Below are positions 8,201 through 61,096 of a DNA stretch of 64,000 nucleotides, piece after piece. The notes beneath the pieces are model-generated. The model saw only the letters and a program-made list of their open reading frames with translations, was not told the origin of the DNA and ran no database searches. Source of the stretch: Cenarchaeum sp. (GTDB lineage Archaea > Thermoproteota > Nitrososphaeria > Nitrososphaerales > Nitrosopumilaceae); contig CBDESU010000002.1 in the NCBI GenBank assembly GCA_965242695.1, forward strand, positions 448,001-512,000, given 5' to 3'. The translations under genes were made by a program, and so were the position numbers. The first letter of the stretch is position 1. Each line of letters opens with the position of its first letter.

Positions 8201-9740
8201 TTCGGTCGATCTCGGCGCCTGGCAGCGGCCCCAGGTCATACCTTGAGCCCCAGTCGGTCGTCCCGAGAAGGGGAGAGTTCCCGTAGTCGTAGCTTCGCAC
8301 CGTGACGACAGTCCTTGCGCCGGCGCCCCAGACCATCCCGAACAGCAGCTTGAACGCGCGCATGGTCTTTTCGTTGCGCCCGGCCGCATCAAGCGAGTCG
8401 AATATTATCGTCATCTCTCTCACCCCTCCTGGCGGCGCGGCGCGGCTCACAATGTCGACAAGGCTGCGGCCGTGGACGACGGCCCGGTCCAGCTCTTCGG
8501 CCGACTCGATGCCGAGAAAGTCGTCGCATCTGACGAGCAGGGCCGCCTCGGATGCGGCGAGGTCCTCGTATAGCAGGCGCGACAGGACGCTCTTTCCAGA
8601 GCCCCTGTCGCCGACTATGGCCACCCGGCCCTTGTCCTCGAGAAGCTCCTTGATCTCGCCGATCTCCTTGCTCCGGTCGATGACGGTTTTTTCGCCGATC
8701 CTGCTGAAGATGGACTCTGCGGCACCCCTGCCCGCCATGCCCATCAGGTCGCGATCCGTCGCATCGCGACCGGTATCCGCCGCGGGCTCCTGCCCTCCTT
8801 CCCTTGCATCCTTTACAACGCGCGCGATCTCGTTCATGATCGACTCGGGATCGCCCTTGTCCCAGTACCTCATGAAGGTGTCGGCGAGCATCGGAAGCTT
8901 GGGCGCAACTTTGGAATGGCTGGTCTTGTAGAGTATGGGGATGATCCTGTCCTCGAGGCGTCCGCCCAGCATCTTGCCAAGCTCGATCATCGCGTACCGG
9001 CTCTTGTCGTACGCTGGGCTGACGATGGTCACTGCGTATGCGGAGCGTTCCAGTGCGCCCATGATGGTAGAGGACACCTTGTCGCCTATCGACAGGCGGG
9101 CAACGTCGCGCCACACGCGCAGGTCGCGGTGCACAAGCCCCGCCTCCAGCTTGGCCGCCACCTCCTCGCCGTCCTTGTGGGCGTAGGATATGAACACGTC
9201 CCACTTGAAGGCCGACGTTCCCTTGCCCGGCCTATCCGCCTCTGCAACGCGCCCGCCGCGGACGCACACGTCGCCCCGGATTGCAGCAGGGGCGGACTCG
9301 GCCCACTCGGCCCTCTTCCGGGACAGCTCGGACCTCGTCCCGGCCGGCAGGGCCTCGTACGCTTTCCTTATGCGGTCCCGGCCCCTCGGCGTGATGGCGA
9401 TCTCGGCGCCCGGCCCCTCCCCGCCGCCGGCGATCTCTATGTTCCTCGAGAAGAGCAGCTGCTCGGCATCGCCCTCGACGTGGCCGCTGCGCGGGCCGGA
9501 TGCCGTGCCGCAAAACGAGACGGGCTCTACGCGGCATCCGGCAAGGACGGTCGTAAGGGCAAGGAACACCTGCCGGACGAGGGCGGGCAGCCCCTGTACG
9601 GGCCGTGGGTCGGCGCGCAGGAGTATCAGGATCACGTCCTCTACGGTGAGGTCTATGTCGCACGACGTACGGCGGATCGCCTCGTCGATCTCGCCGACGG
9701 TGTAGAGGCGGCGGCCGTCGCCGGGATCGCCCCCGGTCAT
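5226..9740 (-). CDS. wHTH-TIR-STAND NTPase-helical repeat protein (Avs/NLR-like), ~1504 aa
   Basis: Start reassigned to ATG 9740 (ATGA overlap with the upstream gene). TIR_2 motif WDVFISYAHKD...IVSPAYDKSRYAMIEL, Walker A GDRGSGKS, Walker B IIFDSLD, YFHHAYLDY, and HEAT-like C-terminus (VRSGVAHNL, VRSDVARSL). Confidence 0.85.
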   Translation of the reverse strand: MTGGDPGDGRRLYTVGEIDEAIRRTSCDIDLTVEDVILILLRADPRPVQGLPALVRQVFLALTTVLAGCRVEPVSFCGTASGPRSGHVEGDAEQLLFSRNIEIAGGGEGPGAEIAITPRGRDRIRKAYEALPAGTRSELSRKRAEWAESAPAAIRGDVCVRGGRVAEADRPGKGTSAFKWDVFISYAHKDGEEVAAKLEAGLVHRDLRVWRDVARLSIGDKVSSTIMGALERSAYAVTIVSPAYDKSRYAMIELGKMLGGRLEDRIIPILYKTSHSKVAPKLPMLADTFMRYWDKGDPESIMNEIARVVKDAREGGQEPAADTGRDATDRDLMGMAGRGAAESIFSRIGEKTVIDRSKEIGEIKELLEDKGRVAIVGDRGSGKSVLSRLLYEDLAASEAALLVRCDDFLGIESAEELDRAVVHGRSLVDIVSRAAPPGGVREMTIIFDSLDAAGRNEKTMRAFKLLFGMVWGAGARTVVTVRSYDYGNSPLLGTTDWGSRYDLGPLPGAEIDRILGEIGSPPVPPGLKELLAVPLNLHILSLVLERSTGADLASIRSEIDLYDTHWHHYVELDPLKIRVKDELYGMAEAMFKVRKTTIPYGPDDQEAAEAAQSSNMLERTGGGGMIRYFHHAYLDYVMSRALLERHQSLTDYLHADEHNIFLLPTLSLTFAMAHERDAKGFATLVEEIARADIRHYWKNAAIAALAAVLHDEKCAACLRLETLLADHFILQRHFLIALAKQPSESWFPVWGGALAGWATDADNHNGSFIVDCLKVAAADARHHNGVFAVARELAKSNKNGQARKEAVVLLADIDATGKAELLRAMSRDGDPRVRSGVAHNLPRLLDSNPDAVPVVFCNLYSHEETSSEKTSMGSYGAVELTSTKAQDNLYNKWDLCTMLPGLLKANPTVMVRAVILAAERINHDILERQGNGLANDPLWRYRQMAPSDGEDPLSHVRNYIDGCSDEDLSCLIPAFKNTRLVSFRRMLVDAVAIRTPRLADDLAVLLSDPHVYESHALQRSVRDAIGSAVGMLDEAQAKRICNAIARSNSPRDLTGAEMRKTAQARAAFFSELPRAVLSTEHASIVDQFPKQTTTDVPPPSVTLYDLPDEKAAEHDPLAAVRAVIGDDLGRDKKIKLLQNMAKVLGGPHGGLEETLLLQMEALLLRSKHDEDPEQDAENPPEVAREVVPNVRGLVAECLIRISAERKSGDVLEAIRELSEDPVNLVRSDVARSLRLLSPDHYDMARTIALAYSRDPDPHVRFYLPAFLPHMIPKEPASASAMIGNILVASTPAPMGIAAPLLRLAICLEEPHATRLLDRIVDKREFDDQLRIDISFVLKKDYIRSWKHSDAALDLLYRLLGDSSSNVRRKVVFLTLSDFDENPDIDDRKYIKKITRHLSRMMLLLDEKPLDIFIADALTKFLDKFWAEVPEFALACLDKIIKIHGGTAASEPAMADRSLKILGGLLSHHSLYDDEWNRCIDVLDAFAAVGWPAALDLLAEMGRRD

Positions 9741-10201
9741 GCCATGCTCAGCTCCGTGAACACGTAGTATTCGCCGTCCCTGGAACTCCTCTTGACGAAC
9801 GATCCGAATGTCCTGACGCCCCCGCGCCGGAAGCACACGAACAGCTCCCTCTTGGAGACGGACACGGACGCGAGCGAGCGGTAGCGGCTCGCCCTGCGCG
9901 CCATGGCGGTGCGGTGCCTGGCAAGCAGGTCGGACGCGGTCACGCCCTCCCCGTAGTAGAGGCGCATGCGGCCTGCCACGCGCCGCTCCACCCTCAGGCC
10001 GGCGAGTATGTTGCCGACGCCCCTGTCGGCGCGCACAAACTCCATCGTGCAGCCGTGGCAGCGGAGGTACGACTCGGGCCTGCGGATATCCAGGAATCCG
10101 CCCGTTCCTCCCACTGTCACGCCGAGCCTTGCCCAGGCGAGGATCGGCCGTACCCGGTGCGCCCTGCCCCCGCAGAACGGGCAGGTGCGGGAAGAGTCCA
10201 T
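9737..10201 (-). CDS. Zn-ribbon protein (CPFC...CHGC), cassette copy 1, 154 aa
   Basis: ATG at 10201 preceded by TTTATTAC. End-to-end similar to 43785..44258. Its stop overlaps the next start. Confidence 0.8.
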   Translation of the reverse strand: MDSSRTCPFCGGRAHRVRPILAWARLGVTVGGTGGFLDIRRPESYLRCHGCTMEFVRADRGVGNILAGLRVERRVAGRMRLYYGEGVTASDLLARHRTAMARRASRYRSLASVSVSKRELFVCFRRGGVRTFGSFVKRSSRDGEYYVFTELSMA

Positions 10202-10224
10202 GGAGGGGGCGGCCGGGGCCTGTG

Positions 10225-10232
10225 GTAATAAA
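10225..10232 (-). promoter_or_regulatory. Archaeal-type TATA-like box TTTATTAC
   Basis: AT island in GC-rich DNA, 24-31 nt upstream of ATG 10201. The same 8-mer occurs 23-30 nt upstream of paralog start 44258. Confidence 0.6.
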
Positions 10233-10509
10233 CAAGGACGAGTGATGAGGTGGGCGGGCGCTCGGGGAGACGGCAGGGAGGCCACGGCGGCCCGCCCCGC
10301 AGCAGGGGCGGCGCGGCAGGGGCGGCAGGGGCGCCTGTAGAGGCCGCCGCCCCGCATGCGGCCGTGTCGGCGCACCGACGGGAGGGCGTGCCGCAGCCGC
10401 AGCCGCAGCCTCCGCCGCTCCGGCGGCGCGTGGGCGGCGTCATTCCGGCGGGGCGCAAGCAGGGCTGCGCCTATCGCCGGCTTTGGGGCGGCCGCCGCGG
10501 ACGCCCCCC

Positions 10510-12330: not shown

Positions 12331-12586
12331 GGTTCAACCTCCTAGTGGGATTTTGAGGCAACCATGATGTGCTGCGCTTTCGCGCATGCCTTGCCCACCT
12401 CCCCGCCCATTTGTCCGCCCGAGTGCGCGGCTGGCAGAGCCCAGATAGATAGAGCGTGGCGTGCGGGCGGTTCGTGCGCGATAGACGACATTGTCAAGCA
12501 GGCGGGCGGGCGAGCTAGGCGCCACAGTAGGCGCCCGGGTGATGCGGGCAGGCCTTGCAGCGCGAACGGTGCGACGGCGCGCAGGA

Positions 12587-15500
12587 TTACCCATCCAAGC
12601 CGCCTCCTACGCCGCCGCCTGCTCCCGAGTAGGGGTTTTTCCCCTCGTCCTTGAGGGACTCGGCGACGGGGTCGTTGAGGGCGACCAGGCAGTCGACAAT
12701 CCACGCGTACTTGGCGCGGTGATCCGGGAGGGCGCCGTCCGGCCGTTCGCATGTCGAGGCCCTGTATAGCAGGTGCGACACCATCTTGACAGTGGCATCG
12801 GAGAGTCCCGATGTGTCGGCCTGCTGCAGCACCTGCCAGAGCCAGCCGATTCCGCGGGAAAGCAGGAGCGCGGGGGGTGCGTCGGCCAAGAGGGATGCAA
12901 CGGCCTCGACCGCATCCCTGTTGCCGGCAAGCGCCGCGCACCACGACGATATCTCGGCGGCAAGCCCCTCGACAACCTCAAACCTGCCCTCGTCACCGGC
13001 GGCTTTCGGGAGGTCGGCGAATATGAGCAGGGCAAGGATTGATTTTTTCACCCGGTTGTTGCGGTAGTGCCAGGCCGCAAGCCTGGGCCCGATCACCCGG
13101 GGCAAGAGGTGTTTCCATGCGGCCAGCAGGCCTGCCCCCCGGCCTGCCCGCATGCCCCAGATGACGGTGTGCCGCATAAAGTACTCCAGCAGCTGGGGGG
13201 CCGCCTCCCACTGGGAGGCAATTTTGTCCAGGATGCTGTCGCGAAGCTCGGGCCGGCTCTCAGTGTGCGACTCTAGAACCCTGAAAAAGTCGGGGCACCA
13301 CATGTTGCGGAACAGCGGATAGGCCCCCCCGTAGGCGCGGCTCTCTTCGAGCTCCTTGAACACGGCGATCGTGTCGTCTAGCATGTCGTCGATGATGCGC
13401 TCCAGCTTGCGCTCGGTGCCGTCGTCTACGGGAGGGACGTCGCGCAGTGCGGGCAGCACGGCTGTGCGCCCCGCCCAGTCAGCGTGCGACCGTCCGTCTC
13501 CATCCTTTTTGTCGGGGAACCGCCGCCTCGCCCTTGCGATGCACTCCAGCACAAGCTTGTCTTCGCGGCCCCAGAGGACGCAAAGCCCGCGCATCAGGGA
13601 TTCAAGCACCGCGTCGTTGCGCGCATCGGCAAACTTGCGGATCGCATTCCTCGCGCCGCGGCCGCGGCCGCCCCGAAGGTAGCAGTGCGGGAGGGCGTGC
13701 GCAACCGGCTGGGCGGCACTGTAGCGATAGGACGGCCCGGCCCGCGGGTCGATCGTGTTCGCCATGCCCTCAAGGTACTTTAGGCATGCGTTGGCCACGC
13801 CCATTTTGACCGCCTCGTCCCAGCGGTGGGCGACCATGGCCCCGGCCAGGCCGGCCCTGCCGTGCGCTGCGCCGTCTTCGTTGTATCTGGGCCGGGACGA
13901 CAGGAAGCCGCCCTCCGCGGCCTGCTCGGCGTACTCTAGCGCCGACTCTATGGTGAAGGCTGGCCCGATCTCGTTTTTTTCGATAAATGTGTTCAACCAC
14001 ATTGCAAAATCCGACGCTTTTTTGCGAGCCGTCGCCCGCCTCTCTGCCTCTTTTTCGCCGTCGGTAGGGAACCGCCCCTTGTCGAAGGCCGTCCCTGTGG
14101 CCCCGCCGGAGGCTTGGGCGGAGGCGTAGTTGTCACTGTGTGCTACTTTTGACCATAATTCGCAACGCCTCCGGCGTTCTTTCATGGTTTTTTCGTCATT
14201 GACGTCGTCCTTGAAGAAAACGGGGACACAGCCGGGGAAGGCCTCGAGGCCAGCCTTCATCCTGCTCCGGGCTTTATCGGGGCCGTCAAGGAGCAGTCGA
14301 GGAGCAAAACCGCTCAGATCACCTAGCTTGCATCGTCCGCTCGCATGCTGGATTGCCAAATCAAATTTTCTCTCTGATATTTCTCTCCCGTCCGACTGCA
14401 TTGCACGTGTGCGGAGAATCTCGATGGCCACCATGTCTGCCCTTAGCCGCTCTGCATCCATTATCCAAAACGCCGGGTTTAGCAGTATTGGCAGGATGGC
14501 CTCTGCGGTCTTGTCCATGTGCCCGAGGGCGACAGTGCAGCAGACGCCTACGACGGCCGCAGAGTTGGTCGGCTGCAGGACCCTGTCAAAGAGGGCCGTC
14601 GCCGCTTCCTTGCCGTTCTTGATCTGGCTATCAAGCCACACCTCCAGCGCCATCAGGGCCGATGCCACCAGGTTGGAGGCTCGGGGGGCGTGGCCGCCCC
14701 ATGCGAACGCGTATTCGTCGCCGTAGACGTAGACGGGGCCGGAATCGAGGCTGACGGTCTGGGGCACCGGGATGCGCGGGGGTTGAAGAGGGCCACCCGC
14801 CTCCCGTGCCCTGCGCCACTCGCCGGTGACGTGGTTCAGCAGATTGTGCACGAGCGCCAGGCCGTGCTCTGGATGGAATGCCAAAAAGGGAAGGAATGGC
14901 CCCTCATGCGGAGAGGGCAGATCGGTCCACCCGTCGTCGCATATTTCCGGTATGTCTTTGAGCGGCCCAAGGGAGTCAGGGCCTGTGCACATGGCGCGGG
15001 ACAGGACGTCGACCGCAACGCCTGGCAGGAACTTGCAGAGGTACGCCCAGCCGTATTCTTTGGTCAATCCCCGCTTGAAGTGCTCATTGCCGACGATGGA
15101 GGGGCTACCCGATATGAACTTCTTTACCAGATCCGGCGCGGAGGCGGACGAGTACATGATTGTTGCAGCGACAAGGCCTTTGATCTCGTCCGATTCGCCG
15201 TAGTCCCGGCCGAGGATCGCCTCGCCGCCGCGCAGCCAGCCCGCATGCTGTACGGCATACCCTGCGATGCGCCTTTTCAGATCGTGGTTCGCTCCGTTGC
15301 GCGACCACCAAGCGGCCGTCCTTATGAACTGGGCAATGGCCGCACCGCCAAGGCCCTCCATGTTGTCCAAGGCGAACGAGAGGACGGGCGCAAACCTCTC
15401 GTCCCTAGGAAGCTTGTAGTACGCAGGATGCAGGCCCGGCTCCACAATGCCATGCTCCTTTGCGGCCAGAGCCCAGTACGGGTTATCCCTCAGAAACGCG

Positions 15501-23745: not shown

Positions 23746-23754
23746 GAAACAACA

Positions 23755-41001: not shown

Positions 41002-43788
41002 TCAGGGAAGCCACCCCCCGCCCCCAAGATGCCGCTCCGGTTCATCTGTCAAGAGATCCACGCTTCGGCTTTTCATGGCGTTGTCCGTTTCGCTCTTTCG
41101 ATCGTCTGTGGCTCGTCCTATTGGTCGCGGGCTGGGATTTAACGTAGGCCATTTTTTGTTTATGTACATTAACATCTCTCTTGGGCCATGTGCTCTGCAT
41201 GTGCTGCCCACCCTCACAAAAAACTCGTGCTTTCCTTCCAGCTCTTTCTTGAGCGTCACGGGTCCATCCTGAGACATACTGGCGGCACAGTGAAGAACAT
41301 CATGACCTCTGATCTCCACAATGTTGTAGTCAAAATAGCCGTAGCAATCGGCCCCCAAGTATTCTACTATGATGTCTGTCAGGCGTCGCAATGCGTCGTC
41401 CTTTTGTTTATGTGTCATCTTGTCGGCGCCGGGTGTAACTCCCACCACCTTGCCGTCGTCGTCAACGCCAATCAGCAGATGTCCCCCGTCCGTGTTCAAA
41501 AAGCTGCACAGTACTATAGCTATTTTTTCTGATATTTTTTTTGATCTGGCAGACCCTTCTAGATGCGGGGCAGGCCATGTTTTGAATTCTAGCACTTTAG
41601 ATTCGTTCTTGGACAGAAGGGACTCAACCAAGCGTGCTCGGTCGCCGCCGCGTGCAGGCCCTGGCGCAGGAGCGTATCGGCGATCCACGCGGCTCGTTGC
41701 GGCTTCCGTAGCAGGTGTAATCGAAGCGGCCGAAGCGTGCTTCCCCGCGCCGGTAGAAGTTGCCGCTCCTTGCGCCGCTGCGGTCCCAAGTTCCTCTCCC
41801 GCATAGTGTCCGATCGGCTTGTCTGCCAGTTTGAGTTCATCTAGGCAGGAGATGCGCCCTACGTATGCGTCGGAGTTGCCGGGGCTCAGTTCAAGCGCCC
41901 TGTCAAAGTGCGCAAGGGCCTCGCTGATCAGGTTCAGGCGCAGGAGAGAGAGGGCTTTGTTGTAGTGCGCGGCGGCGTTGCCGGGATCGATCCCGAGCGC
42001 CCTGTCAAAGTGCGCGAGGGCCTCGCAGTCCCTGCCCAGCTTTGCGAGCACGGTCCCCATGTTGTTGTATGCACCGGTGCTGCCGGGATCTAGACTAACG
42101 ACCTTTCTGTATTCTCCAAGCGCCCTGCGCAGGCGACCCGTCGACTGCAGGGACAGTGCTCGGTTGTAGCGCGGGACGGGCTGATTCGGATCGATTTGAA
42201 GCGCCTCGTCAAAACATGCAAGCGCCTCTTCGTGGCGGCCCAGGTCAACCAGTATGCCGCCCATGTTCGAGAGCGCGGGCTGGTCTCTAGGCTTTGCCGC
42301 TACGACCGCTTCACAGTGGGGCAGTGCTTCGGCAAAGCGGCCCAGATCGCGCAGCAGATAGGACATAAGTAGGTGGAAGTCCGTGCTGCTGGCGCCAAGA
42401 TCGACCGCCCGGCGGCAGTGCGCCAGAGCCTCTTCCTGGCGCCCCAGCTCGCGCAGGGAGAGCGCCGTGATAAAGTGCGGCCGGGAGTCACCAGAATCGA
42501 CCGCCATGGCCCGGTCGGACCACTTTATGACTTCCTCGTGCGATCTCAGCGCAAACAGCGCGGTTGTAATAGGGAGGTACGAGTCGATGCTGTCCGGCGC
42601 CGCCTCGACCGACTTGCAGGCAGCAGAGACCGCGTCTTCGTGGCGGCCCAACTTCGACAGGCATGCTACCACCCGCGCATGCGCAGCGGGGTTCTTCGGC
42701 GCCAACTTGGCCAACTGTTCTGCGTGCGGCAGGGCCTCTTCGTCGCGCCCCAATTGAAGCAACAAGTCAGACATGCTCTGGCGTGCTTCTATGTTGGCAG
42801 GATCGAGCCGTATAGCCCTCTGATAGTGGGACATAGCCTCAGTGTGGCGGCCGAGCCTGTTCAGAATTGCACCACGCACCATGTATGCTTGGGGGATGTA
42901 AGGCCCCTGTAGTACGGCGCGACTTGAATGCGGCAGGGCCTTTGCGTAGCGACCAAGCTTGTACAGGCAGTAGGCCATGGCGATGTAGCCGCTGGCGTCG
43001 GTGGGATCTACCCTAGTTGCCGCCCTGCAGTGCTTTAGCGCATCCTTGTGCCGTCCCATCTCTGCCAGTGACCGGGCCATCCTGAAATACAGGTCTACAG
43101 AGGGCGCGCCCAGCCCTGCGGCCGTCTTGTAGGCTGCATGTGCCTCTTTGTATTGGCCTTCCTTGAAGAGCTTGTCGCCGCCGTCTACGTATACTTGGCG
43201 CCTTGCCGCATCTACCCCGCTACGGGTGGGCGCCTGTTCTGCAGTCCAGCGCCCGTACTGGCCGCCCGACGGGGCCGCCTGCCGACCGCCCTTCAGGAGG
43301 GTCTCGTTGTGGATGTACAGGGGTTCATCCATGGTTAAGGGCTCTGCTTCATCCCACTTTGCCCTCCCTTGCGCGAGCTTGCGTCTCGAGTCAACCGGAA
43401 GCGCGTCCCACTTTTCCCTGATGCGGGTGCGGCCCCGCGGTGCGATCTCGAACCGAACGGCGGCCGGATCCCCGCCGTCCCCCGTCATCTTTACGCTGTT
43501 CGAAAAGGCCAAGTTGTCTAGGGCAAACTCGACGTCCTCGCTGCGCGGCCCGCCCGGCCCCTTCTCGAACGCGGCCGTCTCGACGTCCGGCCCGCCAAGC
43601 ACCCCCCTCAGGGCCAGGAGGACCTCGCCGGTCAGGCGGCCGAGGCCCTTGACGGGGCGGTCGCCGGCGTTCAGTACCAGCAGGACTACATCCTCGATCG
43701 TCAGCGACACGTCGACCGTGCGCCCAACGAACTCGTCGAACTCGCGCAGTGGAAGGGGCCCCTGGCGGCCCGCGCCGGAGCCCGTCAT
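41002..43788 (-). CDS. wHTH-TPR array-Schlafen AlbA_2 protein, 928 aa
   Basis: Start reassigned to ATG 43788 (ATGA overlap). Many 34-aa TPRs (AYNNMGTVLAKLGRDCEALAHFDRALGIDP). C-terminal ESKVLEFK...SFLNTDGGHLLIGVDDDG...FFVRVGST. Confidence 0.88.
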   Translation of the reverse strand: MTGSGAGRQGPLPLREFDEFVGRTVDVSLTIEDVVLLVLNAGDRPVKGLGRLTGEVLLALRGVLGGPDVETAAFEKGPGGPRSEDVEFALDNLAFSNSVKMTGDGGDPAAVRFEIAPRGRTRIREKWDALPVDSRRKLAQGRAKWDEAEPLTMDEPLYIHNETLLKGGRQAAPSGGQYGRWTAEQAPTRSGVDAARRQVYVDGGDKLFKEGQYKEAHAAYKTAAGLGAPSVDLYFRMARSLAEMGRHKDALKHCRAATRVDPTDASGYIAMAYCLYKLGRYAKALPHSSRAVLQGPYIPQAYMVRGAILNRLGRHTEAMSHYQRAIRLDPANIEARQSMSDLLLQLGRDEEALPHAEQLAKLAPKNPAAHARVVACLSKLGRHEDAVSAACKSVEAAPDSIDSYLPITTALFALRSHEEVIKWSDRAMAVDSGDSRPHFITALSLRELGRQEEALAHCRRAVDLGASSTDFHLLMSYLLRDLGRFAEALPHCEAVVAAKPRDQPALSNMGGILVDLGRHEEALACFDEALQIDPNQPVPRYNRALSLQSTGRLRRALGEYRKVVSLDPGSTGAYNNMGTVLAKLGRDCEALAHFDRALGIDPGNAAAHYNKALSLLRLNLISEALAHFDRALELSPGNSDAYVGRISCLDELKLADKPIGHYAGEELGTAAAQGAATSTGAGKHASAASITPATEAATSRVDRRYAPAPGPARGGDRARLVESLLSKNESKVLEFKTWPAPHLEGSARSKKISEKIAIVLCSFLNTDGGHLLIGVDDDGKVVGVTPGADKMTHKQKDDALRRLTDIIVEYLGADCYGYFDYNIVEIRGHDVLHCAASMSQDGPVTLKKELEGKHEFFVRVGSTCRAHGPREMLMYINKKWPTLNPSPRPIGRATDDRKSETDNAMKSRSVDLLTDEPERHLGGGGWLP

Positions 43789-44258
43789 ATGCGGCTCAGC
43801 CCCCCGAGGGTGTAGCGGGACGCGCCGCCCTGCCCGCCGTCCCTCCTGACTAGCGGGCCGAACGTTCGCACGCCGCCGTGCACGAAGCATGCGATCAGCT
43901 CGTCCCCGTCGACGGACACCGACAGTGCGGATCGGCGGCCGCGAGCCCTCCTCACGACGGCGGTGCAGTGCCGGGCCAGAAGATCGCGGGCCGTCATGCC
44001 CCTGCCGTGGTAGCACTGGATCTGGAGGGCCGCGCGGCGCTCCACCTGCAGACCGGGCAGTAGGGTCCTGGCGTCCCTCCCCGTGTAGATGTACTCGATC
44101 ATGCACCCGTAGCACTTTAGGTACGTCTCGCCGCGGCCCGACAGCCGCAGGGTGGCCCCGATGCCGCCCGCACTGGCGCCCATCTCGACTCCCGCGAGCC
44201 ACGGCCCCCTTTCGACCGGGCGGCCGCCGCAAAAGGGGCACTGGTTCTGGAGGGCCAT
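43785..44258 (-). CDS. Zn-ribbon protein (CPFC...CYGC), cassette copy 2, 157 aa
   Basis: Shares LxVERR, GxGxTAxDLLARHxTA, SVSV, ELxxCFxxGGVRTFG with 9737..10201. TTTATTAC at 44281-44288. Confidence 0.8.
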   Translation of the reverse strand: MALQNQCPFCGGRPVERGPWLAGVEMGASAGGIGATLRLSGRGETYLKCYGCMIEYIYTGRDARTLLPGLQVERRAALQIQCYHGRGMTARDLLARHCTAVVRRARGRRSALSVSVDGDELIACFVHGGVRTFGPLVRRDGGQGGASRYTLGGLSRI

Positions 44259-44785
44259 GGAAGGGAGGCCGGAGGCCGGTGTAATAAAGTGGGCCGGGCG
44301 GCAGCGCAAATGACGAGTTCGGCCGCTCGATGGCGTAAGGGCGCCACAGGGATGCGGCCGCCCTAGGCGGCTGTCGGGTGGACTCCAGCCGGGCACGGGC
44401 GGGGCGTCCGGCGGCAGGGGGATCAGGAATGGCCCGCCCGGCCGCGCACCGCTGCCGATCCGCGTTTTCGGCCGGCCCGAGCGGGAGCTGTTGAGGGCGA
44501 GGATGCGGAGAGAGAGGCCGCGGCCGCGCGCGACGGCGCAGAACGCAGGGTTCCTTGGCCGGCAGCGCGCCCCGTTAGGCCGCTGGACGCGACGCGCGCG
44601 GGGCGTCCCCTGCACGAGCCTGCGCGGCCGCCCCAGGCCCAAGACCCGCCCACGCCCGCACCGAAGGCCCGTGCCGTGAACGCCCCTGTCAAGCCGGGCC
44701 GCGGCGTCAGATTTGAACACCAGAGATGTGGCGGGACGCGGTGCCTTTTCCGGCATGCCGTGGCCATGACAGCCGCCTGCGACCT

Positions 44786-49288: not shown

Positions 49289-49678
49289 GCCGTGATCACC
49301 CCTTGTGGGAGGAGCGGCGGCTGGATGATGCCGCGCCAGCGCGGTCGTCGCCGTCCCCAAGGAGGGCCACATCAGCGCGCGGTACAGCCCCGATGCCAGT
49401 GGTGGGCACGACGGAGTGTGAACGGGCAGGGAGCCGCGCGCGGTGGCTCGATCCAGACTGCCTGCGTTGGCGGGAATGGCATCCTCGGTACGGGGGCTGG
49501 CAGGCCACTGCGACCCCGCCAAAGGCGCGACATCCGGAGCGCGGGCAGGCAAGATCAAAGGGAATGAGCTCGCAAGTGTCAACGCAGAGCCCGACTGCGC
49601 AGTAGAAGGGGTGCGATGCCGGAGCCGCACACGGTTTGCCGCGGAGATGTGCCCGCAATGATGACAAGCGTCGCGGCA

Positions 49679-54970: not shown

Positions 54971-54971
54971 G

Positions 54972-55457: not shown

Positions 55458-55505
55458 GCATTGGCAAGCCGGCCGGCCCTTGATAAACTTTCAGCATGTA
55501 GGGGC

Positions 55506-55605
55506 CGCGGAGGATCGGCGTGCGTCAAGGCGCGACCGGGGCGGCTTGGCTCGGCGGGCGGGCGGGGGCGGGCGCCGCGCGGAGGATCGGCGTGCGTCAA
55601 GGCGC
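55506..55605. repeat. 28-bp direct repeat (CGCGGAGGATCGGCGTGCGTCAAGGCGC) x2 in divergent intergenic region
   Basis: Copies at 55506-55533 and 55578-55605. Confidence 0.85.
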
Positions 55606-55608
55606 CCC

Positions 55609-56049
55609 ATGGCCAGAGAGGGGAAGAGGTGCGCATAGTGCGGCTCAAGGGACATTAATGCCGGCAAGCGGGCGGGGCTCAAGTTGATGCTGAGCAGATT
55701 GGCAGCCGCGTGGGCATCCCCGGACGAGCCAGAGGTGGCAGTGCGCCCAAAAAACGAAGTGTCGTGCGCCGCCTGCAAGGCCTCCTATACGGTGCAGACG
55801 ATCGGCAACGAAAAGACGCGCGCGCTGCCGGGGACCACCGGGATCCACGAGGTTGCACTGGCCAACTTTACAGACATGTTTGCCGGGCACACGCTTGACG
55901 AGCTAGGCCGCTCGGCTACTGCCGCCGTGCAGCCAGACGCGGACGCCCTCCACATATTTTTTGCGCTAGACGGCAAGAGGGCCTGCCGTGGGTGCGGAAG
56001 GGTCGACGGGCGCTTCGTGGCCGCGTCCGTAGAGGGGGCTGACGGGTGA
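55609..56049 (+). pseudogene. Zn-ribbon protein, cassette copy 3, with in-frame TAG at codon 10
   Basis: ATG 55609 reads MAREGKRCA*CGS...VSCAAC...RALPG...LHIFFALDG, in frame with track ORF 55684..56049. CxxC spacing resembles copies 1 and 2. Confidence 0.65.
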
Positions 56050-56416
56050 TCCAAATGGCCAAGTATGGCGTCCAAAGCATGGGAAACGGAGCCTTTAGGC
56101 TCCCCGACGGATCCATAGCGTACACAATGGAGAGGGCCGTGGAAGAGCAGAAAAAGATCAAGCCCGTCGAGTACACGGCATCGGACCTGATCCTGCTCCT
56201 GCTGCCGTCGCAAGACAAGCCCATCGTCGGCCGAACGCTGCTCTTCAAGGAGTTGTTTATCCTCAAAAAGGAGGTGCCTGCCGAAGAGGATGTCGAGGAC
56301 TGCAAGTTCGTCCCGCACTGCTACGGGCCGTACAGCTTTTACATGGCGTTCAAGGTCCGCGAGATGTCGGGGATGGGGCTGATCGAGGTATCGGGGGCGG
56401 GTGGGACCGCGGCGTA

Positions 56417-57980
56417 TAGGGGTTCTACTAAAGTTGACAAGAATTGACCAGGTGTCAAGATCTCTTCACCCCTGTGGTGGTATAGCAGGGACGACAGAGT
56501 AGGGCATGGGGCGAAAGGGATCGATTCCAGTGGGCAAGGGCTTCATGCCTGGCACGAGCGCCCACAAGCTCAAGCGCCTTGCCAACAAGGAGATGGACGC
56601 GCTGACGGCCAAGAGGTACATGGCCGCGTACCACCGCAAGAAGGGCAGGTCGTTCAACGAGATAGCCGGGATGGTCCTTGCATCGTACGACGCGGTCAGG
56701 GACTGGCTGGTGAAGATGCACAAGGGGGGCCTGAAGGCGGCCCCGCGGGGCAAGAGCCCCGGCAGGCGCCGATCAATTCCGCTCGAGATCCGCTGGGAGT
56801 TGATCATGGATGTCTTCATGGGGCCGCAGGCGGCCGGCTACAAGGCCAACGTGTGGACGTTCAAGCTCCTGCACGACCATCTTGAGAAAAAGTACAAGGT
56901 GAAGATAGCATACTCGACGGCCGCAAAGAACTTCAAGGAGATGGGCATACGGCTCAAGGTGCCCCGCCCCGCACACCCAAAGGCGGCGAGCCTCGAGGAG
57001 CGGCTCGCCTTCCAGGCGGAGGCGCGCGCCAGGATCAAGGAGGCCGCCGCAGCCGGCTACCATACGGTCTTCATCGACGAGGGCCATGCGCAGGGCTACA
57101 AGAACGGGCGCGAGTCGGCGGGGCTGAGGGGGGTCGAGATCGTGCGCACGTCGAGCGTCGGGCGCGCACGCCTGAGCTTCTTCGTAGCCGTCGGCTACGG
57201 GTGGGTCTTCGTCATGGAGTGCCCCGGCCGGGCCAACAGCGAGGCGTACACGAGGTTCCTTGACAGGGTCAGCGCCCTAGTCGGCAAGATTCAGACCATA
57301 GACGACAACGCCGGATACCACACCTCGGACAGGTCCAGCGACCACATCCGGGACAACGCGGACCGCCTGAGGCGCATACCCACGCTTCCTTACACGCCCA
57401 ACGACAACGTCGCCGAGCCGCAGATCCGCGGCATAAAGACCGCCATGTCCAACGTAGGGCTCGACAGCGTCGGGGCCATAAGCGGCGAGCTCGGGTGGTG
57501 CTTTGAGAGCGACCTAGTCGTCCCGGTCGAGTTCTACGACTATGCGACTGCGGTCGACGCGCCGCAGATCAGCCCCCGCAAGGCGGCGGGGATCAAGAAA
57601 AGGCTCAGGCCGGGAGAGCACTTTGCGTACGTGCAGAGGAGAATGCCGGAAGAGGAGATCCCCCTGCCGACCATCGAAGAGATTCAAGCGAAGGAGGACA
57701 AGATACTCCCTCCGGAAAAGCGCGCAAAGTTGCCCCCTGTGCTGGCCAATTCGAACATTCCTGCCAACTTTCTTGCGAGGCTTCCCCCGATATTGCTTGA
57801 GGAATAAAGTGGCATGCCCCGCCTGCGATAAATGTTGCACTTGTGCCGCGCTGCGGAATAACAATTCACGATACAATTGTTTTGTGTAACTATTTTGTGT
57901 AACTGTTTTCTGTGACTTTTTTTCGACCTTAATTGCATGCAATCTTCAATACGTTTTCGTGAACTCAGATAGAACCCCTA
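56417..57980 (+). mobile_element. IS630-family insertion sequence
   Basis: Imperfect terminal inverted repeats TAGGGGTTCTActaaAGTTgAC / GTgAACTcagaTAGAACCCCTA, with duplicated TA at 56415-16 and 57981-82. Confidence 0.9.
56506..57807 (+). CDS. IS630-family transposase
   Basis: HTH region, VPRPAHPKA, VFIDE, DDNAGYH and LPYTPNDNVAE (DDE triad). Confidence 0.9.
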   Translation: MGRKGSIPVGKGFMPGTSAHKLKRLANKEMDALTAKRYMAAYHRKKGRSFNEIAGMVLASYDAVRDWLVKMHKGGLKAAPRGKSPGRRRSIPLEIRWELIMDVFMGPQAAGYKANVWTFKLLHDHLEKKYKVKIAYSTAAKNFKEMGIRLKVPRPAHPKAASLEERLAFQAEARARIKEAAAAGYHTVFIDEGHAQGYKNGRESAGLRGVEIVRTSSVGRARLSFFVAVGYGWVFVMECPGRANSEAYTRFLDRVSALVGKIQTIDDNAGYHTSDRSSDHIRDNADRLRRIPTLPYTPNDNVAEPQIRGIKTAMSNVGLDSVGAISGELGWCFESDLVVPVEFYDYATAVDAPQISPRKAAGIKKRLRPGEHFAYVQRRMPEEEIPLPTIEEIQAKEDKILPPEKRAKLPPVLANSNIPANFLARLPPILLEE

Positions 57981-58046
57981 TACGCCCCGACCCGAAAGGG
58001 GCTCAAAAGGGCAGGGGCGAGGCGCCGGGCCGCGCCCGCCGGCCCG

Positions 58047-59678
58047 GGGGGTTATGCGTATTGGAACCCGGCGATCGCACCCAGAGGAAAATCTCGACCC
58101 GAAACTGGAATTTTGATCGAGTGAAGATCCGGGCGCCAGAAATTGCACCTCCGTCGGGCCGTGGCTCAAAAAACCTTGACTTCTTGTCAATCGGATTTCA
58201 CCCGCCCCGTCTTAGGCGGCGGCCGGGCAACGCCGGCGATGGAGCAGTGCCTGATCGATCCCGAGGTCCTAAAGGTGTACGAGGAGGTCGTCCCCGAGTC
58301 GTGGTTCGAGGCGGATCCGAATCACATCGCGAATATCGGCACTGCGAGGTACAAGAAGTTCCTCAAGGACGCCGACGAGCGGCTTGCCCTGATGATGGAG
58401 GGGTGCAAGGATCCCAAGCTGTGCGGGCAACGCGCCCGGCGCGTCTCGCGGGACGGGACGCTGCGCGACGAGTCGTGGCTGCACGGCGCGACGGGACTGG
58501 ACCACGCCATGTTCTTCTACATCGTCGCCTGCTTCGAGCACGAGATCGAGACCACGCCCGACGTGCCCCTCTTCCGCCACGGCCTTGACCCCGAGAGGGC
58601 ATCCGACCGTGGCAACCGCTGCATCCTGGCCGCGGAGCACATGGTGTGCATGACCCTGTACCACATCTGGACGGGCTGCTCGCAGGAGTCGCTGCAGGGC
58701 ATGTTCTGGATCGACCAGACGACGGCCTCAAGGAACATCCGGCTGGTCAGGGGCATCATGGCCAACTCCGGCATGCTTCCGACCGACCTGGGCCTCATGG
58801 ACGAGCTCAGATCCTTCACCAAGGAAAAGGTCCAGGAGTACGTGGGCAACGTCCTGCTCGTCGACTTGACGCACTACGACATCGAAGATCCCGTCGACAA
58901 GGAGTCCAACAAGGAGGCATACTCGCACAAGGCCGGCACGACCACCTGCAAGTCGGTGCACGCATGCGCCAAGCGGGGCCTGGTCGTCCTCAGCGGCGAG
59001 CTGGAGGGAGGGCGGGGCAGCGAGATAGAGTACCTGCGCCGCCACTTTCCAGACGTGGGAGTCCTGACGGCATCCCTTACGAGCCCCGACACGCCGGCGG
59101 CCGAGCGCACCTCGGTCTACATCGACAACGGCCCCCAGGGGATCAAGGAGCTGCTCAAGGGCGCCAACGTCCTGATGCCGCACCGGAAGCCGATCGGGGG
59201 CGAGCTGACGGAGGAGCAGAAGGCCTACAACTCGCAGCTGGCCGCCGAGCGGGCCCCGGTCGAGAACAGGTTTGCCGAGATAAAGCAGAACAAGATACTC
59301 GCCCACGAGTTCCGCGGCTCGGTCGAGGACCTTCGCGAGACCCGCACCGTCTGCATCGGCTTCGTCAACCTGAAGCTGATAATGAGGGGTGCAGACGGGT
59401 TCGTCCCCGACACCCACGCCAAGGAGTCGGCAGGCGGGCCCGGGCCGCCGGGGCCGCATGGCCGCAAGCCGCGGCAGACGTTCCCGTACCTCGCCAAAGA
59501 GTGACCGCCGCCGCGCTGATCACCGAAAAAGGGCGAATTTCGTGCCTTTTTCGGGCGGCGGCGCGGCATTCGGGCGAGTTTCGGACATCTGGCTGCGCAT
59601 ACTTCGTCGTTTCGCGTTTTGTTTTTCGAGTTTCACAGTGGCAAGGGCGATCGCGGGCATGCAATACGCATAACCCCC
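58047..59678 (+). mobile_element. IS5-family (ISL2/Harbinger-like) insertion sequence
   Basis: 17-bp perfect TIR GGGGGTTATGCGTATTG / CAATACGCATAACCCCC and 3-bp TSD CCG at 58044-46 and 59679-81. Confidence 0.9.
58239..59504 (+). CDS. DDE_Tnp_4-type transposase
   Basis: LLVDLT..IEDP, AYSHKAG, YIDNG.QG and PHRKP...LTEEQKAYN...ERAPVENRFAEIK. Confidence 0.88.
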   Translation: MEQCLIDPEVLKVYEEVVPESWFEADPNHIANIGTARYKKFLKDADERLALMMEGCKDPKLCGQRARRVSRDGTLRDESWLHGATGLDHAMFFYIVACFEHEIETTPDVPLFRHGLDPERASDRGNRCILAAEHMVCMTLYHIWTGCSQESLQGMFWIDQTTASRNIRLVRGIMANSGMLPTDLGLMDELRSFTKEKVQEYVGNVLLVDLTHYDIEDPVDKESNKEAYSHKAGTTTCKSVHACAKRGLVVLSGELEGGRGSEIEYLRRHFPDVGVLTASLTSPDTPAAERTSVYIDNGPQGIKELLKGANVLMPHRKPIGGELTEEQKAYNSQLAAERAPVENRFAEIKQNKILAHEFRGSVEDLRETRTVCIGFVNLKLIMRGADGFVPDTHAKESAGGPGPPGPHGRKPRQTFPYLAKE

Positions 59679-59833
59679 CCGGATGCCAGGATGCGAAAGT
59701 TCCGCAAGGGCCTGGGCCAGCGCGGGGCCACGCATATACTGGGGGCCATATGCCGCAGGGCCGAGTGCGCCGAGTACGTGGTAAAGTCCGGGGTGGCGCA
59801 CCGCTACAAGGCCATCACATGGGGGCGCGGGGT

Positions 59834-61096
59834 GTGACGTTCGAGGTCCGGGTCAGGTCGGTGGACCAAGAGTCGCCGTACGCGTACCCCTCAAGGAGTG
59901 TCGAGATAGCCACCAGCTCGGGCAAGGTGACAACCCCGGACAGGGCGGCCACGCTCTACGAGTACAACAAAAAGGCGTCCGTGCCCACCAACGTGCCCCT
60001 AGACAACGACGTGAGCCTGGCCGTAAAGAGGCCGAATGCGGCCACGCTTGCAAGGTTTCTCGGGGAAAACGGCGTGGCGCGGCGGTGGGGAAGGGAGATG
60101 AGGGGCGCCGCCAGGAGGATGTCATACTCGGCGCTCAGTGCGTACCTGGTCCAGCCGACGACCGCCGACATGCCGGCGAGGAAGAAGGGCGGAAAGGAGG
60201 TTGCGCCGGCCGTGCCCTCTGGCACAAGCTACCTGAGATCCAGCCCCGAAAAGATGGAGGTCTTTTTGCGCATTCTGCTCCGGCTGCAGGTCGACGCCGG
60301 CCTCGGCGTCGTCGCCGTGCCGTACCTCGGGCTGCCCCTGTCGGAGTACAAGAGGACGGTCAGGAAAGTCTGCAAGGCCGCCGCCGGCCTCGGCGCCGAA
60401 CCCATGGTTGCCTTTGACCTAGAGTACCAGAAGGGGGGCAGCGGGTTCAAGGAGGCCATGTCGTTCCTGGTGCGGGACATGGGCGTCAGGCTGGTCGCGT
60501 TCCCTGGCCGCTCGTACGCTGGCGCCCCCGTGTCGTACGACGCGCTGGCAGGGTACGCCGAGTCCGACGTGGCGTTCGTCTCGTTCGACACCGACAGGCC
60601 GTACCAGAGGCTCAACCCCCTCTCCAAGATGCACGCGTTCCCGTTCATCGGCACAGACATCTACGCCATAGGGACGCCGCGGTTCGTGCCAGGGGCGGCC
60701 GAAGCGGGCCCCGGCGGCGCCGGCGCGGGCGGCTCTGGCGGCGCCGGCGCTGGATCTGCCCTTGACAGCGTGAAGTTCTTTGAGCCGTCTAGCCTGACGA
60801 TCCGGCCGTCGGCCGAGCGGGTGGGGGATCCGGCCGCCCTGCTAGACGAGATCGGCGAGCGGGGCAACGCGCAGCTGCGCGGCATGCTCGAGGAATACGA
60901 GTCGGCCCGGGACAATCCCGACAAGGCCGCCGCCCTCTCGTCGCTCTCTAGGGTGCACGAGCTGGTGTCGAGCACCGCCGAGTTCGGAAGCCTCAGGGAC
61001 TGGATCAGAAAGGGCGAGACAGCAGAATACGTCAAGGAAAAGCCAAGGCTGGAGACGACCCTGGCGGATCTAGAACAAAAGCGGAAGGGGCGCTGA
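59834..61096 (+). CDS. Divergent TGT-like/TIM-barrel-like protein, 420 aa
   Basis: GTG start overlapping the wHTH stop (GTGA). N-terminal RSVEIATSSGKVTTP resembles the TGT N-terminal hairpin, and MHAFPFIGTDIY follows later. Canonical DSG and Zn motifs are absent, so the CDS is firm but the fold call is weak. Confidence 0.55.
   Translation: MTFEVRVRSVDQESPYAYPSRSVEIATSSGKVTTPDRAATLYEYNKKASVPTNVPLDNDVSLAVKRPNAATLARFLGENGVARRWGREMRGAARRMSYSALSAYLVQPTTADMPARKKGGKEVAPAVPSGTSYLRSSPEKMEVFLRILLRLQVDAGLGVVAVPYLGLPLSEYKRTVRKVCKAAAGLGAEPMVAFDLEYQKGGSGFKEAMSFLVRDMGVRLVAFPGRSYAGAPVSYDALAGYAESDVAFVSFDTDRPYQRLNPLSKMHAFPFIGTDIYAIGTPRFVPGAAEAGPGGAGAGGSGGAGAGSALDSVKFFEPSSLTIRPSAERVGDPAALLDEIGERGNAQLRGMLEEYESARDNPDKAAALSSLSRVHELVSSTAEFGSLRDWIRKGETAEYVKEKPRLETTLADLEQKRKGR

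Follow-up and report, generated by a model that had tools for sequence, protein, structure and literature searches.

The window analysed here, a 64,000-nt stretch of Cenarchaeum sp. (GCA_965242695.1, contig CBDESU010000002.1, positions 448,001-512,000 of the forward strand), carries three cassettes, two intact and one decayed, in which the gene of a small zinc-ribbon protein is followed by a gene with a winged-helix (wHTH) domain (Table 1). The setting of these cassettes is an archaeal defence island.

Table 1. Features of the three zinc-ribbon/winged-helix cassettes, in window coordinates.
Feature	Position	Strand	Remarks
TTTATTAC box, copy 1	10225..10232	-	TATA-like; 24 nt upstream of zinc-ribbon ATG
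Zn-ribbon protein, copy 1 (P0001)	9737..10201	-	Type A, 154 aa; CxxC-x37-CxxC, then alpha/beta C-terminal domain
Winged-helix domain, copy 1	9246..9740	-	Residues 1-165 of P0003; start ATG overlaps zinc-ribbon stop (ATGA)
Payload, copy 1, fused to winged helix	5226..9245	-	TIR (residues ~179-305), STAND P-loop NTPase (residues ~350-420 onward), HEAT repeats
TTTATTAC box, copy 2	44281..44288	-	23 nt upstream of zinc-ribbon ATG
Zn-ribbon protein, copy 2 (P0002)	43785..44258	-	Type A, 157 aa
Winged-helix domain, copy 2	43294..43788	-	Residues 1-165 of P0004; ATGA overlap with zinc-ribbon gene
Payload, copy 2	41002..43293	-	TPR array (residues ~190-640), Schlafen/AlbA_2 domain (residues 729-865)
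Zn-ribbon ORF, copy 3	55609..56049	+	Decayed, type B-like; in-frame TAG at 55636-55638
Winged-helix gene, copy 3, fragment 1	56046..56413	+	P0005 up to ~residue 122
IS element 1	56414..57982	+	DDE_3/IS630-like transposase ORF 56506-57807
Winged-helix gene, copy 3, fragment 2	57983..58042	+	The ..APTRKGLKRAG.. part, flanked by the IS elements
IS element 2	58043..59679	+	DDE_Tnp_4 transposase ORF 58143-59504
Winged-helix gene, copy 3, fragment 3	59680..59837	+	C-terminal tail ending ..HRYKAITWGRGV, stop 59835-59837
TGT-fold gene, copy 3	59834..61096	+	Open frame; GTGA overlap with winged-helix stop

In copies 1 and 2, the winged helix forms the N-terminus of a long fusion gene (5226-9740 and 41002-43788, respectively), each overlapped by the zinc-ribbon gene in an ATGA; ATGA or GTGA overlaps were found at every cassette gene junction. 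The zinc-ribbon cysteines are C7/C10 and C48/C51 in copy 1 (spacing 37) and C7/C10 and C49/C52 in copy 2 (spacing 38). Both parts are clearly shared, the zinc-ribbon proteins being 48% identical over 144 aa (E 1e-38) and the first ~165 aa of the fusion proteins 42% identical (E 3e-35). For these two copies, coordinates and identities thus bear out the first-pass annotation, which had described CxxC genes overlapping by 4 nt a gene that starts with a common domain. Its fusions to TIR-STAND-HEAT and TPR-AlbA_2 were recovered with Pfam as TIR_2 (6.9e-16) and HEAT_2 (1.2e-8) in copy 1, with the STAND P-loop matches (AAA_16/nSTAND3) below the cut-off, and as TPR and SLFN_AlbA_2 (2.2e-14) in copy 2. 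The copy 1 fusion protein also matched the PADLOC model PDC-M54A (3.8e-28). The TTTATTAC box, noted earlier as common to both copies, has exactly two occurrences in the window, both 23-24 nt 5' of the zinc-ribbon ATGs, against a chance expectation of 0.23; two of 100 shuffles reached this count.

The third copy, previously counted on a par with the others, is related but belongs to a different subtype and has become pseudogenised. The TAG in its zinc-ribbon ORF falls inside the first 'CxxC' and is taken as a stop because the genome has neither a PylS match (pyrrolysine machinery) nor, among its 45 tRNAs, one with a CUA anticodon. The ORF is unlike those of copies 1 and 2 (pairwise similarity not significant, E 0.42; no match by a profile of the two), but it is the genome's top match to the profile of the divergent type B zinc-ribbon genes from other archaea, at only E 0.088. 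The earlier picture of a free-standing winged helix coupled to a TGT-like gene stands in so far as the former is genuinely, if distantly, homologous (27% over 100 aa, E 3e-9) and the latter is real; the winged-helix gene, however, is broken into three fragments by IS elements 1 and 2, the first with four more genome copies (~98.5% identity) and the second with one more (99%). The TGT-fold gene looks to be the sole component of copy 3 still intact.

Profile searches of the whole genome returned four zinc-ribbon matches and, for the wHTH domain, 19 matches at E <= 1, six of them strong (E <= 1e-18). Beyond the cassettes of the window, the genome contains two additional decayed cassettes and two uncoupled genes. 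The pairing is not obligate, since one zinc-ribbon gene (C2:565 kb, adjoining what by eye is a putative restriction-modification pair) has no wHTH partner and one wHTH gene of 199 aa stands alone.

The unit nevertheless recurs outside its own genome. In the profile-based adjacency search, a zinc-ribbon ORF lay immediately 5' of the wHTH gene in all ten close loci from other archaeal genomes (G169, G447, G143, G145, G518, G498) and metagenomes (L042-L045), as the view of a recurrent unit had anticipated. A TGT-fold gene follows in nine of them, L045 being the exception, and these nine have the same order of overlapping genes (zinc ribbon, wHTH, TGT fold) as copy 3. Copies 1 and 2 are without the TGT-fold gene and have TIR-STAND-HEAT or TPR-AlbA_2 fused to the winged helix instead. 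No zinc-ribbon gene was found near more distant wHTH relatives in four loci (L022, L023, L024, L028), and one of seven TGT-fold loci (G058, a partial match) had, by eye, neither zinc-ribbon nor wHTH neighbours. Across 12 pairs, the pairwise identities of the two proteins are correlated (Mantel r 0.78, a value reached in two of 5000 permutations), which is also expected from plain co-inheritance of adjacent genes.

The payloads are diverse, in agreement with the earlier proposal that they are interchangeable. The TGT-fold payload, encoded in trans, has TM scores of 0.64-0.71 to TGT families. Among the best 150 of 565 wHTH representatives (matches at E <= 1e-3), 11 were proteins of at least 290 aa in which the domain is N-terminal. 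Pfam, run on seven of these 11, gave SIR2_2 (8e-10), Peptidase_M78 (2.3e-9) and HEPN (9.6e-5), STAND with TPR in one, TPR in two and no match in one. The metagenomic SIR2, HEPN and M78 fusions were compared as protein sequences. Two representatives (P0067, P0069) join DUF4258, a zinc ribbon and the wHTH in one chain; DUF4258 is described in PMC11980606 as a toxin family of the RelE/ParE superfamily.

The likeness of the winged helix to SocA/DUF4065, noticed in the first pass, is real, but it is remote and below every curated Pfam threshold. The three window domains matched no Pfam family even at E <= 10; within the family, one of 56 members matched PF13274 (SocA/Panacea, E 0.008) and seven of 56 matched DUF4364 (best 5e-5). 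The best sequence link was to the C-terminal domain of DarG, where the family profile matched chain 7yk3_B (E 3.3e-4) over the F-x-P-x-x-YGPYS...LT-x-KG segment. Foldseek also placed 7yk3_B/D among the top matches (E 0.045-0.08, probability 0.93-0.96, TM 0.37-0.41); no match reached E <= 0.001, however, and MarR-type DNA-binding regulators matched equally well, so that a role in binding DNA is conceivable. The PADLOC models of DarG and PDC-M19A matched weakly. These similarities suggest that the winged helix is distantly related to the toxin-binding domain of DarG, DUF4364 and SocA/Panacea.

The zinc-ribbon protein had no informative match: nothing in Pfam, PADLOC or NCBIfam, and a best Foldseek E of 0.42. 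In its AlphaFold2 model, helices precede a four-stranded antiparallel sheet, with a weak Foldseek match to 7vd7_A, which belongs to a Salmonella toxin-antitoxin complex (E 0.52, probability 0.57), and the family gave a weak Lar-like signal (18.4 bits against a cut-off of 28.6). Eleven of 12 zinc-ribbon proteins are basic (pI 8.3-11.2), and the wHTH domains, at pI 5.2-9.6, are not consistently positively charged. The suggestion that the zinc-ribbon protein binds the winged helix is supported in silico: the predicted complex had an ipSAE of 0.84, a model confidence and not a measurement, compared with 0.01 for the best of three controls, and three runs had at least 86% of contacts in common with partner pLDDT of at least 75. 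Of 80 solved complexes, 58 reach the ipSAE mark, as do two of 110 mismatched pairs, counts which hold only roughly because the alignments here were self-supplied. The predicted interface comprises the N-terminal leader, helix 86-97 and the next hairpin of the wHTH, and residues 66-93 of the zinc-ribbon protein, spanning the conserved YYGEGV..DLL segment.

The comparison establishes the cassette architecture, its conservation in other genomes and the exchange of payloads. The conserved two-protein core with interchangeable payloads is probably a regulatory or sensor switch. Its constant part is a translationally coupled zinc-ribbon protein of ~155 aa (N-terminal Cys4 ribbon plus small alpha/beta domain) and a YGPYS-type winged-helix domain of ~165-190 aa. 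In the widespread form, the payload is encoded by a third gene of its own, whose product has a tRNA-guanine-transglycosylase fold, and in this genome and metagenomic relatives effector or sensor modules at the winged-helix C-terminus replace it. The bound pair may serve as a sensor or an antitoxin-like safety catch, holding back an effector fused or adjacent to it until a sign of infection disturbs the pair; on this view, a fused form would correspond to a toxin-antitoxin pair encoded in a single gene, to which one small subunit is added. To this reading of the window as a whole, with its two intact and one decayed cassettes, coupled core, swappable payloads and safety catch or sensor, we give an even chance. 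A zinc ribbon and antitoxin-like winged helix that recur with varied effectors point to a portable module, so far undescribed, that would control archaeal immunity. The first-pass annotation knew of no described system with such an architecture, and the literature searches found no published description of the cassette, its three-gene TGT form included. The novelty lies in the fusions of the winged-helix domain to effectors other than the TGT-fold gene.

Several known systems are similar in part. In PanA/PanT (Panacea, DUF4065, SocA), as described by Kurata et al. 2022 (PMC8832971), a small winged-helix-type antitoxin domain neutralises many unrelated toxic partners by direct binding, with tight gene coupling, in bacteria, archaea and phages. 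The cassette is like it in its antitoxin-like winged helix, many unrelated partners and tight coupling, the kinship being remote because the window domains have no PF13274 match. Unlike PanA/PanT, it has a constant extra component, the upstream zinc-ribbon protein; its payloads, among them a TGT-fold protein and NLR-like STAND proteins, are often fused to the winged helix rather than separately encoded. The C-terminal DarT-binding domain of DarG (PDB 7yk3), going by the title of Deep et al. 2023 (cited in PMC11825919) a protein-binding ssDNA mimic, is an antitoxin domain gripping its toxin by direct contact; it is the best profile match and among the best fold matches, but the fold match is weak (TM ~0.4), the cassette has neither macrodomain nor DarT, and its partner is a zinc-ribbon protein. 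MqsA joins a toxin-binding Cys4 zinc ribbon to a helix-turn-helix in an antitoxin context, and DUF4258-MqsA fusions are listed in PMC11980606; here, in contrast, two proteins share these parts between them, the one with the ribbon has an extra alpha/beta domain, and XRE-type HTH and MqsR are absent. Copy 1, with TIR, P-loop STAND and repeat sensor, is similar to Avs/NLR-like STAND proteins (PADLOC PDC-M54A; TIR-STAND) but adds the N-terminal winged helix and the coupled zinc-ribbon gene, neither of which the family scans found in the matched STAND models.

A split MqsA-like antitoxin or autorepressor, in which ribbon and winged helix jointly bind DNA to repress their own operon and hold the payloads under transcriptional control, appears unlikely. 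MarR/PadR-type regulators match throughout the Foldseek and profile searches, the zinc-ribbon proteins are mostly basic, a promoter-like box precedes both intact cassettes, and in P0067 and P0069 the order is DUF4258, MqsA-like ribbon, wHTH, so that the wHTH occupies the place of the HTH in MqsA. However, an autorepressor has no need of covalent fusion to the N-termini of at least six unrelated effector architectures, and operator repeats were not identified. Moreover, the predicted interface would put the zinc-ribbon protein on helix 86-97 and the next hairpin, and in canonical winged helices the matching elements contact DNA.

Still less likely is a targeting module whose winged helix and/or zinc ribbon recognises invader DNA or RNA, perhaps at modified bases, and brings in the payload, whether an enzyme of TGT fold that exchanges or binds bases, AlbA_2/Schlafen, HEPN or TIR-STAND. 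The inconsistent charge of the wHTH speaks against it, as does its best sequence relative, the protein-binding DarG domain, and SIR2, TIR and M78 payloads need no delivery to nucleic acid. What recommends it is the base-exchanging enzyme fold of the original payload, AlbA_2 and HEPN payloads that, by their Pfam names, bind or act on nucleic acids, the basic zinc-ribbon proteins, and the Lar-like signal together with the zinc-ribbon gene beside the putative restriction-modification pair. We regard as quite improbable a classical type II toxin-antitoxin system with the alpha/beta domain of the zinc-ribbon protein as toxin, the winged helix as Panacea-like antitoxin and the rest as accessory. Translational coupling, the predicted tight binding and the antitoxin-type kinship of the wHTH are consistent with it, and so are the modelled helices and sheet with their 7vd7_A likeness; the supposed toxin domain, however, has no significant fold or family match. 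Since the fused TIR, SIR2 and HEPN payloads are well-known toxic effectors, a second toxin would be superfluous, and the zinc-ribbon gene at C2:565 kb persists without a wHTH, unexpected for an unguarded toxin.

In a defence island of the host genome (3.89 Mb on two contigs, 67-68% G+C, about 96% complete; the window is C2:448001-512000), two translationally coupled proteins form a conserved core whose payload is exchangeable. Of its copies in the window, the first and second are intact and correspond to the first-pass annotation, which had described a coupled Zn-ribbon gene followed by a shared domain with different payloads. Their Zn-ribbon proteins (P0001 and P0002) are 48% identical (E 1e-38), and the N-terminal ~165 residues of the long genes behind them, covering the winged-helix (wHTH) domain, are 42% identical (E 3e-35). 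In both copies the stop codon of the Zn-ribbon gene and the start codon of the long gene overlap as ATGA. Beyond the shared domain, the long protein of copy 1 (P0003) contains a TIR domain (TIR_2, 6.9e-16), HEAT repeats (HEAT_2, 1.2e-8) and, between them, a P-loop STAND region, while in that of copy 2 (P0004) an array of TPRs is followed by a Schlafen/AlbA_2 domain (2.2e-14). P0003 unites TIR, a STAND NTPase with a P-loop and repeats at its C-terminus, a STAND/NLR-like composition; it matched PADLOC PDC-M54A at 3.8e-28, and AAA_16 and nSTAND3 stayed below their own cut-offs. The octamer TTTATTAC occurs only twice in the 64 kb, 23-24 nt upstream of both Zn-ribbon start codons (0.23 occurrences expected; two reached in 2 of 100 shuffles), consistent with an archaeal TATA box followed by a very short leader. 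Directly upstream of the two intact cassettes lie co-oriented giant genes of ~1,500-1,700 aa with P-loop motifs recognizable by eye and no Pfam match at E <= 0.001; these may be further STAND-type defence genes.

Features of the cassettes and their relatives in the host genome (window positions, or contig positions where prefixed with C2)
Feature	Position	Strand	Description
Zn-ribbon gene, copy 1	9737-10201	-	154 aa, CxxC-x37-CxxC
Long gene, copy 1	5226-9740
Giant gene upstream of copy 1	12587-17725	-
Zn-ribbon gene, copy 2	43785-44258	-	157 aa, CxxC-x38-CxxC
Long gene, copy 2	41002-43788
Giant gene upstream of copy 2	44786-49630	-
Zn-ribbon ORF, copy 3	55609-56049
wHTH gene P0005, copy 3	56046-56413, 57983-58042, 59680-59837		three pieces, split by two IS elements
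IS element 1	56414-57982		IS630-like, DDE_3 transposase; four further near-identical genomic copies
IS element 2	58043-59679		DDE_Tnp_4 transposase; one further near-identical genomic copy
Zn-ribbon gene	C2:334721-335188		second CxxC and other invariant residues lost; wHTH-TPR-AlbA_2 gene next
Open frame at 334 kb	C2:329535-335207		outside the window
Zn-ribbon gene	C2:565276-565704		no wHTH neighbour
Region of this gene and its neighbours	C2:562600-565704

Profile searches with an adjacency check demonstrated that the arrangement recurs outside this genome. The wHTH gene is immediately preceded by an overlapping or abutting Cys4 ORF of 142-187 aa in all ten close readable loci (the archaeal genomes G169, G447, G143, G145, G518 and G498 and four metagenome contigs), a count whose independence has to be judged by how each locus was found: G169 by the Zn-ribbon search, G143 and G145 by the wHTH search, G447, G518 and G498 by the search with the third, TGT-fold (tRNA-guanine transglycosylase) gene, and the four contigs by a wHTH pattern. 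The TGT-fold gene follows downstream in nine of the ten. The Zn-ribbon gene was absent at four loci with more distant winged-helix relatives, and inspection by eye revealed no such neighbours in G058, a genome with a partial TGT-fold match. The components are infrequent: the Zn-ribbon protein was present in 2 and the winged-helix subfamily in 7 of 201 genomes of the order (the latter at E <= 1e-8), the TGT-fold gene in 7 of 401 genomes of the phylum, and a collection of 5.8 billion clusters yielded 13 Zn-ribbon homologues, all from metagenome or run assemblies. The sole productive scan of the contig collections was that of metagenome contigs with wHTH alignment A13 (4 loci); A13 found none in viral contigs, wHTH alignment A12 none in genome contigs, and Zn-ribbon alignment A2 none in genome, metagenome or viral contigs.

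Two Zn-ribbon types can be distinguished, type A (window copies 1 and 2, G169, G447 and the four contigs) and the very divergent type B (G143, G518, G498 and G145). They are linked by profile-profile comparison with a probability of 91% (E 9.7e-7, 128 columns), whereby the type B alignment included copy 3 read with its TAG as Y. Over 12 pairs, the divergence of the Zn-ribbon and wHTH proteins was correlated (Mantel r 0.78, 2 of 5000 permutations), as expected for a co-inherited unit and compatible with co-evolution, of which it is no proof. In G169, about 1.7 kb upstream of the triad of Zn-ribbon, wHTH and TGT-fold genes, there is a stand-alone AlbA_2/Schlafen protein (L018:3537-4706; Pfam 1.5e-22), whose domain recurs in copy 2 as a fusion to the winged helix.

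The third copy was only partly as first described. Its wHTH protein P0005 is truly, albeit distantly, homologous to the shared domain (27% over 100 aa, E 3e-9), but the first two genes are broken. The Zn-ribbon ORF has a TAG at codon 10, within the first Cys pair. Decoding of this codon as pyrrolysine was considered and rejected: PylS was not matched by TIGR02367 anywhere in the 96%-complete genome and none of the 45 tRNAs detected by ARAGORN in the whole genome has a CUA anticodon, so that the TAG is a stop. The ORF has no BLASTP similarity to the Zn-ribbon proteins of copies 1 and 2 (E 0.42), no match by their profile and no paralogue in its own genome. The type B profile, built with copy 3 left out, ranked it at the top of 48,841 genome ORFs, although only at E 0.088. 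Based on this rank, the profile-profile link and synteny, copy 3 is probably a decayed type B cassette. Two different IS elements sit 60 nt apart inside its small wHTH gene, the first with GGGGTTC/GAACCCC ends and TA at both junctions. The third gene is open (420 aa), overlaps the wHTH stop as GTGA and is homologous to the third gene of the other archaeal cassettes, that of G169 included (E 1e-17). The order and overlaps of the triad are kept even though its first two genes are broken; intact triads are found in other loci. The TGT TIM-barrel fold was recognized through the ESM Atlas model of the G169 homologue, which aligned with TGT families at TM 0.64-0.71 over about 320-353 residues. PF01702 gave no Pfam match for either the window or the G169 gene, and nothing was found with the gene's profile among PDB sequences.

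An exhaustive search with the winged-helix profile retrieved 565 representatives at E <= 1e-3 (117 at <= 1e-10 and 20 at <= 1e-30), most of them free-standing proteins of 150-230 aa. The domain forms the N-terminus of a longer protein in 11 of the best 150 of these 565. Pfam assigned the extensions of seven of the 11 to SIR2_2, Peptidase_M78, HEPN, STAND + TPR, TPR (two) and nothing (one). P0033, P0041, P0065 and P0081 were read by eye only, with P0033 showing the TPR-AlbA_2 form again and P0041 being similar to P0024. The proposal of interchangeable payloads was therefore borne out by the diversity of C-terminal fusions, comprising TIR-STAND-HEAT, TPR-AlbA_2, SIR2, HEPN, M78 and STAND + TPR, in addition to the separate TGT-fold gene. 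Two further metagenomic representatives, P0067 and P0069, combine DUF4258 (a RelE/ParE-superfamily toxin family), a short MqsA-like Cys4 ribbon and the wHTH domain in a single chain; this amounts to a fused toxin-antitoxin, with the wHTH domain in place of the usual MqsA XRE HTH.

The suggested resemblance of the shared domain to SocA/DUF4065 holds as a remote superfamily relationship and not as membership. The three window domains matched no Pfam family even at E <= 10, SocA_Panacea/DUF4065 (PF13274, gathering score 25.7 bits) included; among 56 family members, sub-threshold matches were obtained to PF13274 in one (E 0.008) and to DUF4364 in seven. The AF2 model (mean pLDDT 78.7, residues 1-24 disordered) is a winged helix with a helical extension. 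Its Foldseek hits, all similarly weak, included MarR-type regulators and, from the DarTG complex 7yk3, the DarG chain, the latter (E 0.045-0.08, TM 0.37-0.41) scoring no better than the former. The 56-member profile had its best PDB sequence match in 7yk3_B (E 3.3e-4), over ~55 residues spanning the YGPYS motif. These sub-threshold Pfam scores, weak Foldseek hits and the 7yk3_B match together suggest a distant kinship. The DarG antitoxin has an N-terminal macrodomain and a DarT neighbour, whereas only a segment of its C-terminal domain is matched here, and Pfam scans of P0003, P0004 and P0005 contained no macrodomain (ADP-ribosyl glycohydrolase).

The Zn-ribbon protein had no informative family or structure match in Pfam, PADLOC, NCBIfam (where the wHTH core protein likewise matched nothing), ESM Atlas or Foldseek, the best Foldseek E value of its AF2 model being 0.42. 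The restriction alleviation family Lar (PF14354/TIGR03655) came closest to a signal, with P0001 at 18.4 bits versus a cut-off of 28.6 and 15.5 versus 39.6, and P0002 at 13.3 bits. The model (pLDDT 78) consists of a Cys4 ribbon with a disordered insert, followed by three helices and a four-stranded antiparallel sheet. Complex prediction was performed for a single cognate pair, the copy 1 wHTH domain (56-row alignment) and P0001 (13-row alignment). It gave an ipSAE of 0.84 (runs 0.83, 0.84 and 0.84) compared to 0.01 for the best of three controls, with at least 86% of contacts common to the runs and partner pLDDT of at least 75. Among solved complexes, 58 of 80 reach the ipSAE mark, versus 2 of 110 mismatched pairs, a calibration that is only rough because own alignments were used. 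The predicted interface is formed on the wHTH side by helix 86-97, the hairpin behind it and leader residues 10-34, for which the monomer model shows disorder, and on the Zn-ribbon side by the C-terminal strands together with conserved residues 66-93. The earlier idea that the Zn-ribbon partner binds the wHTH "tag" is supported by this prediction.

As to function, our confidence is evenly balanced on a core that would act as an antitoxin-type safety catch or sensor for its payload. The kind of element behind such a pair is known, namely a promiscuous antitoxin-like domain. SocA_Panacea domains lie beside a toxic partner and bind it; here, the genes coupled to the domain are those of a Zn-ribbon protein and of effectors, and binding is predicted for the Zn-ribbon protein. 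It is rather unlikely that the two proteins represent a split MqsA-like autorepressor. A nucleic-acid targeting module is slightly less probable again. A charge analysis of the proteins, intended to tell DNA binding from protein binding, gave an ambiguous result. Least probable of these is a classical toxin-antitoxin pair, in which the Zn-ribbon protein would be the toxin. Returning to the safety catch or sensor, a bolder and more doubtful version would make the pair a universal portable sensor-switch of archaeal immunity: the Zn-ribbon protein would sense the virus or be labile, and its docking on the wHTH "tag" would silence any attached effector, be it the TGT-fold enzyme, a TIR-STAND NLR, SIR2, HEPN, AlbA_2 or a peptidase. 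If true, archaea would have a three-part version of the Panacea principle, extended to the gating of NLR-like proteins.

The linkage of the TGT-fold cassette to conventional immune effectors strengthens the case for the cassette being a defence system. Neither the pair nor the triad was described in the literature searched, supplementary datasets aside; the available portions of PMC8832971, PMC11980606 and PMC4158269 describe neither, that of the last containing nothing on TGT or a Zn ribbon, and a search on '7VD7' gave nothing relevant. New are the predicted contact of the two core proteins and the connection of the triad with fusions to TIR-STAND, AlbA_2, SIR2, HEPN and a peptidase. Bacterial immunity is far better charted than archaeal antiviral immunity, and a two-protein core with at least seven payload architectures would be a search handle for new archaeal effectors, in the way that searching for the Panacea domain reveals bacterial toxins. 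It also raises the question of how a Zn-ribbon protein of ~155 aa can control TIR, SIR2, HEPN, AlbA_2 and NLR-like modules.

Apart from the window, the Zn-ribbon profile detected two more genes in the genome, four in total. The winged-helix profile had 19 matches at E <= 1, six of them strong, namely the window copies (three), those at 334 kb and 389 kb, the latter degraded and preceded by no more than a CPFC remnant, and a 578-kb gene (199 aa, 58% identical to P0005) that stands free and has no Zn-ribbon gene. The different states of decay of these cassettes point to rapid turnover. The wHTH-TPR-AlbA_2 gene of the decayed 334-kb cassette stays open in the same frame across a very extended array of tandem peptide repeats (ARKPAARKPRAGT...-type units), then a TIR domain and more repeats, which is either one giant protein or an open frame resulting from the high G+C. 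The solitary Zn-ribbon gene at 565 kb is located upstream of a putative restriction-modification pair, recognized by eye as a restriction enzyme-like ORF, for which Pfam had no match, and a DNA methyltransferase with an SPPY motif, of interest given the weak Lar signal of the family. The weaker winged-helix matches are free-standing paralogues of ~200 aa, some of them just below the SocA_Panacea threshold (E 0.028 and 0.057; 15.8 and 14.8 bits). The wider superfamily is unusually large for one genome, with paralogue clusters at C1:116-121 kb, C1:601-605 kb, C2:19 kb, C2:1264 kb and C1:2188 kb, several of whose members carry UPF0175-like C-terminal tails.
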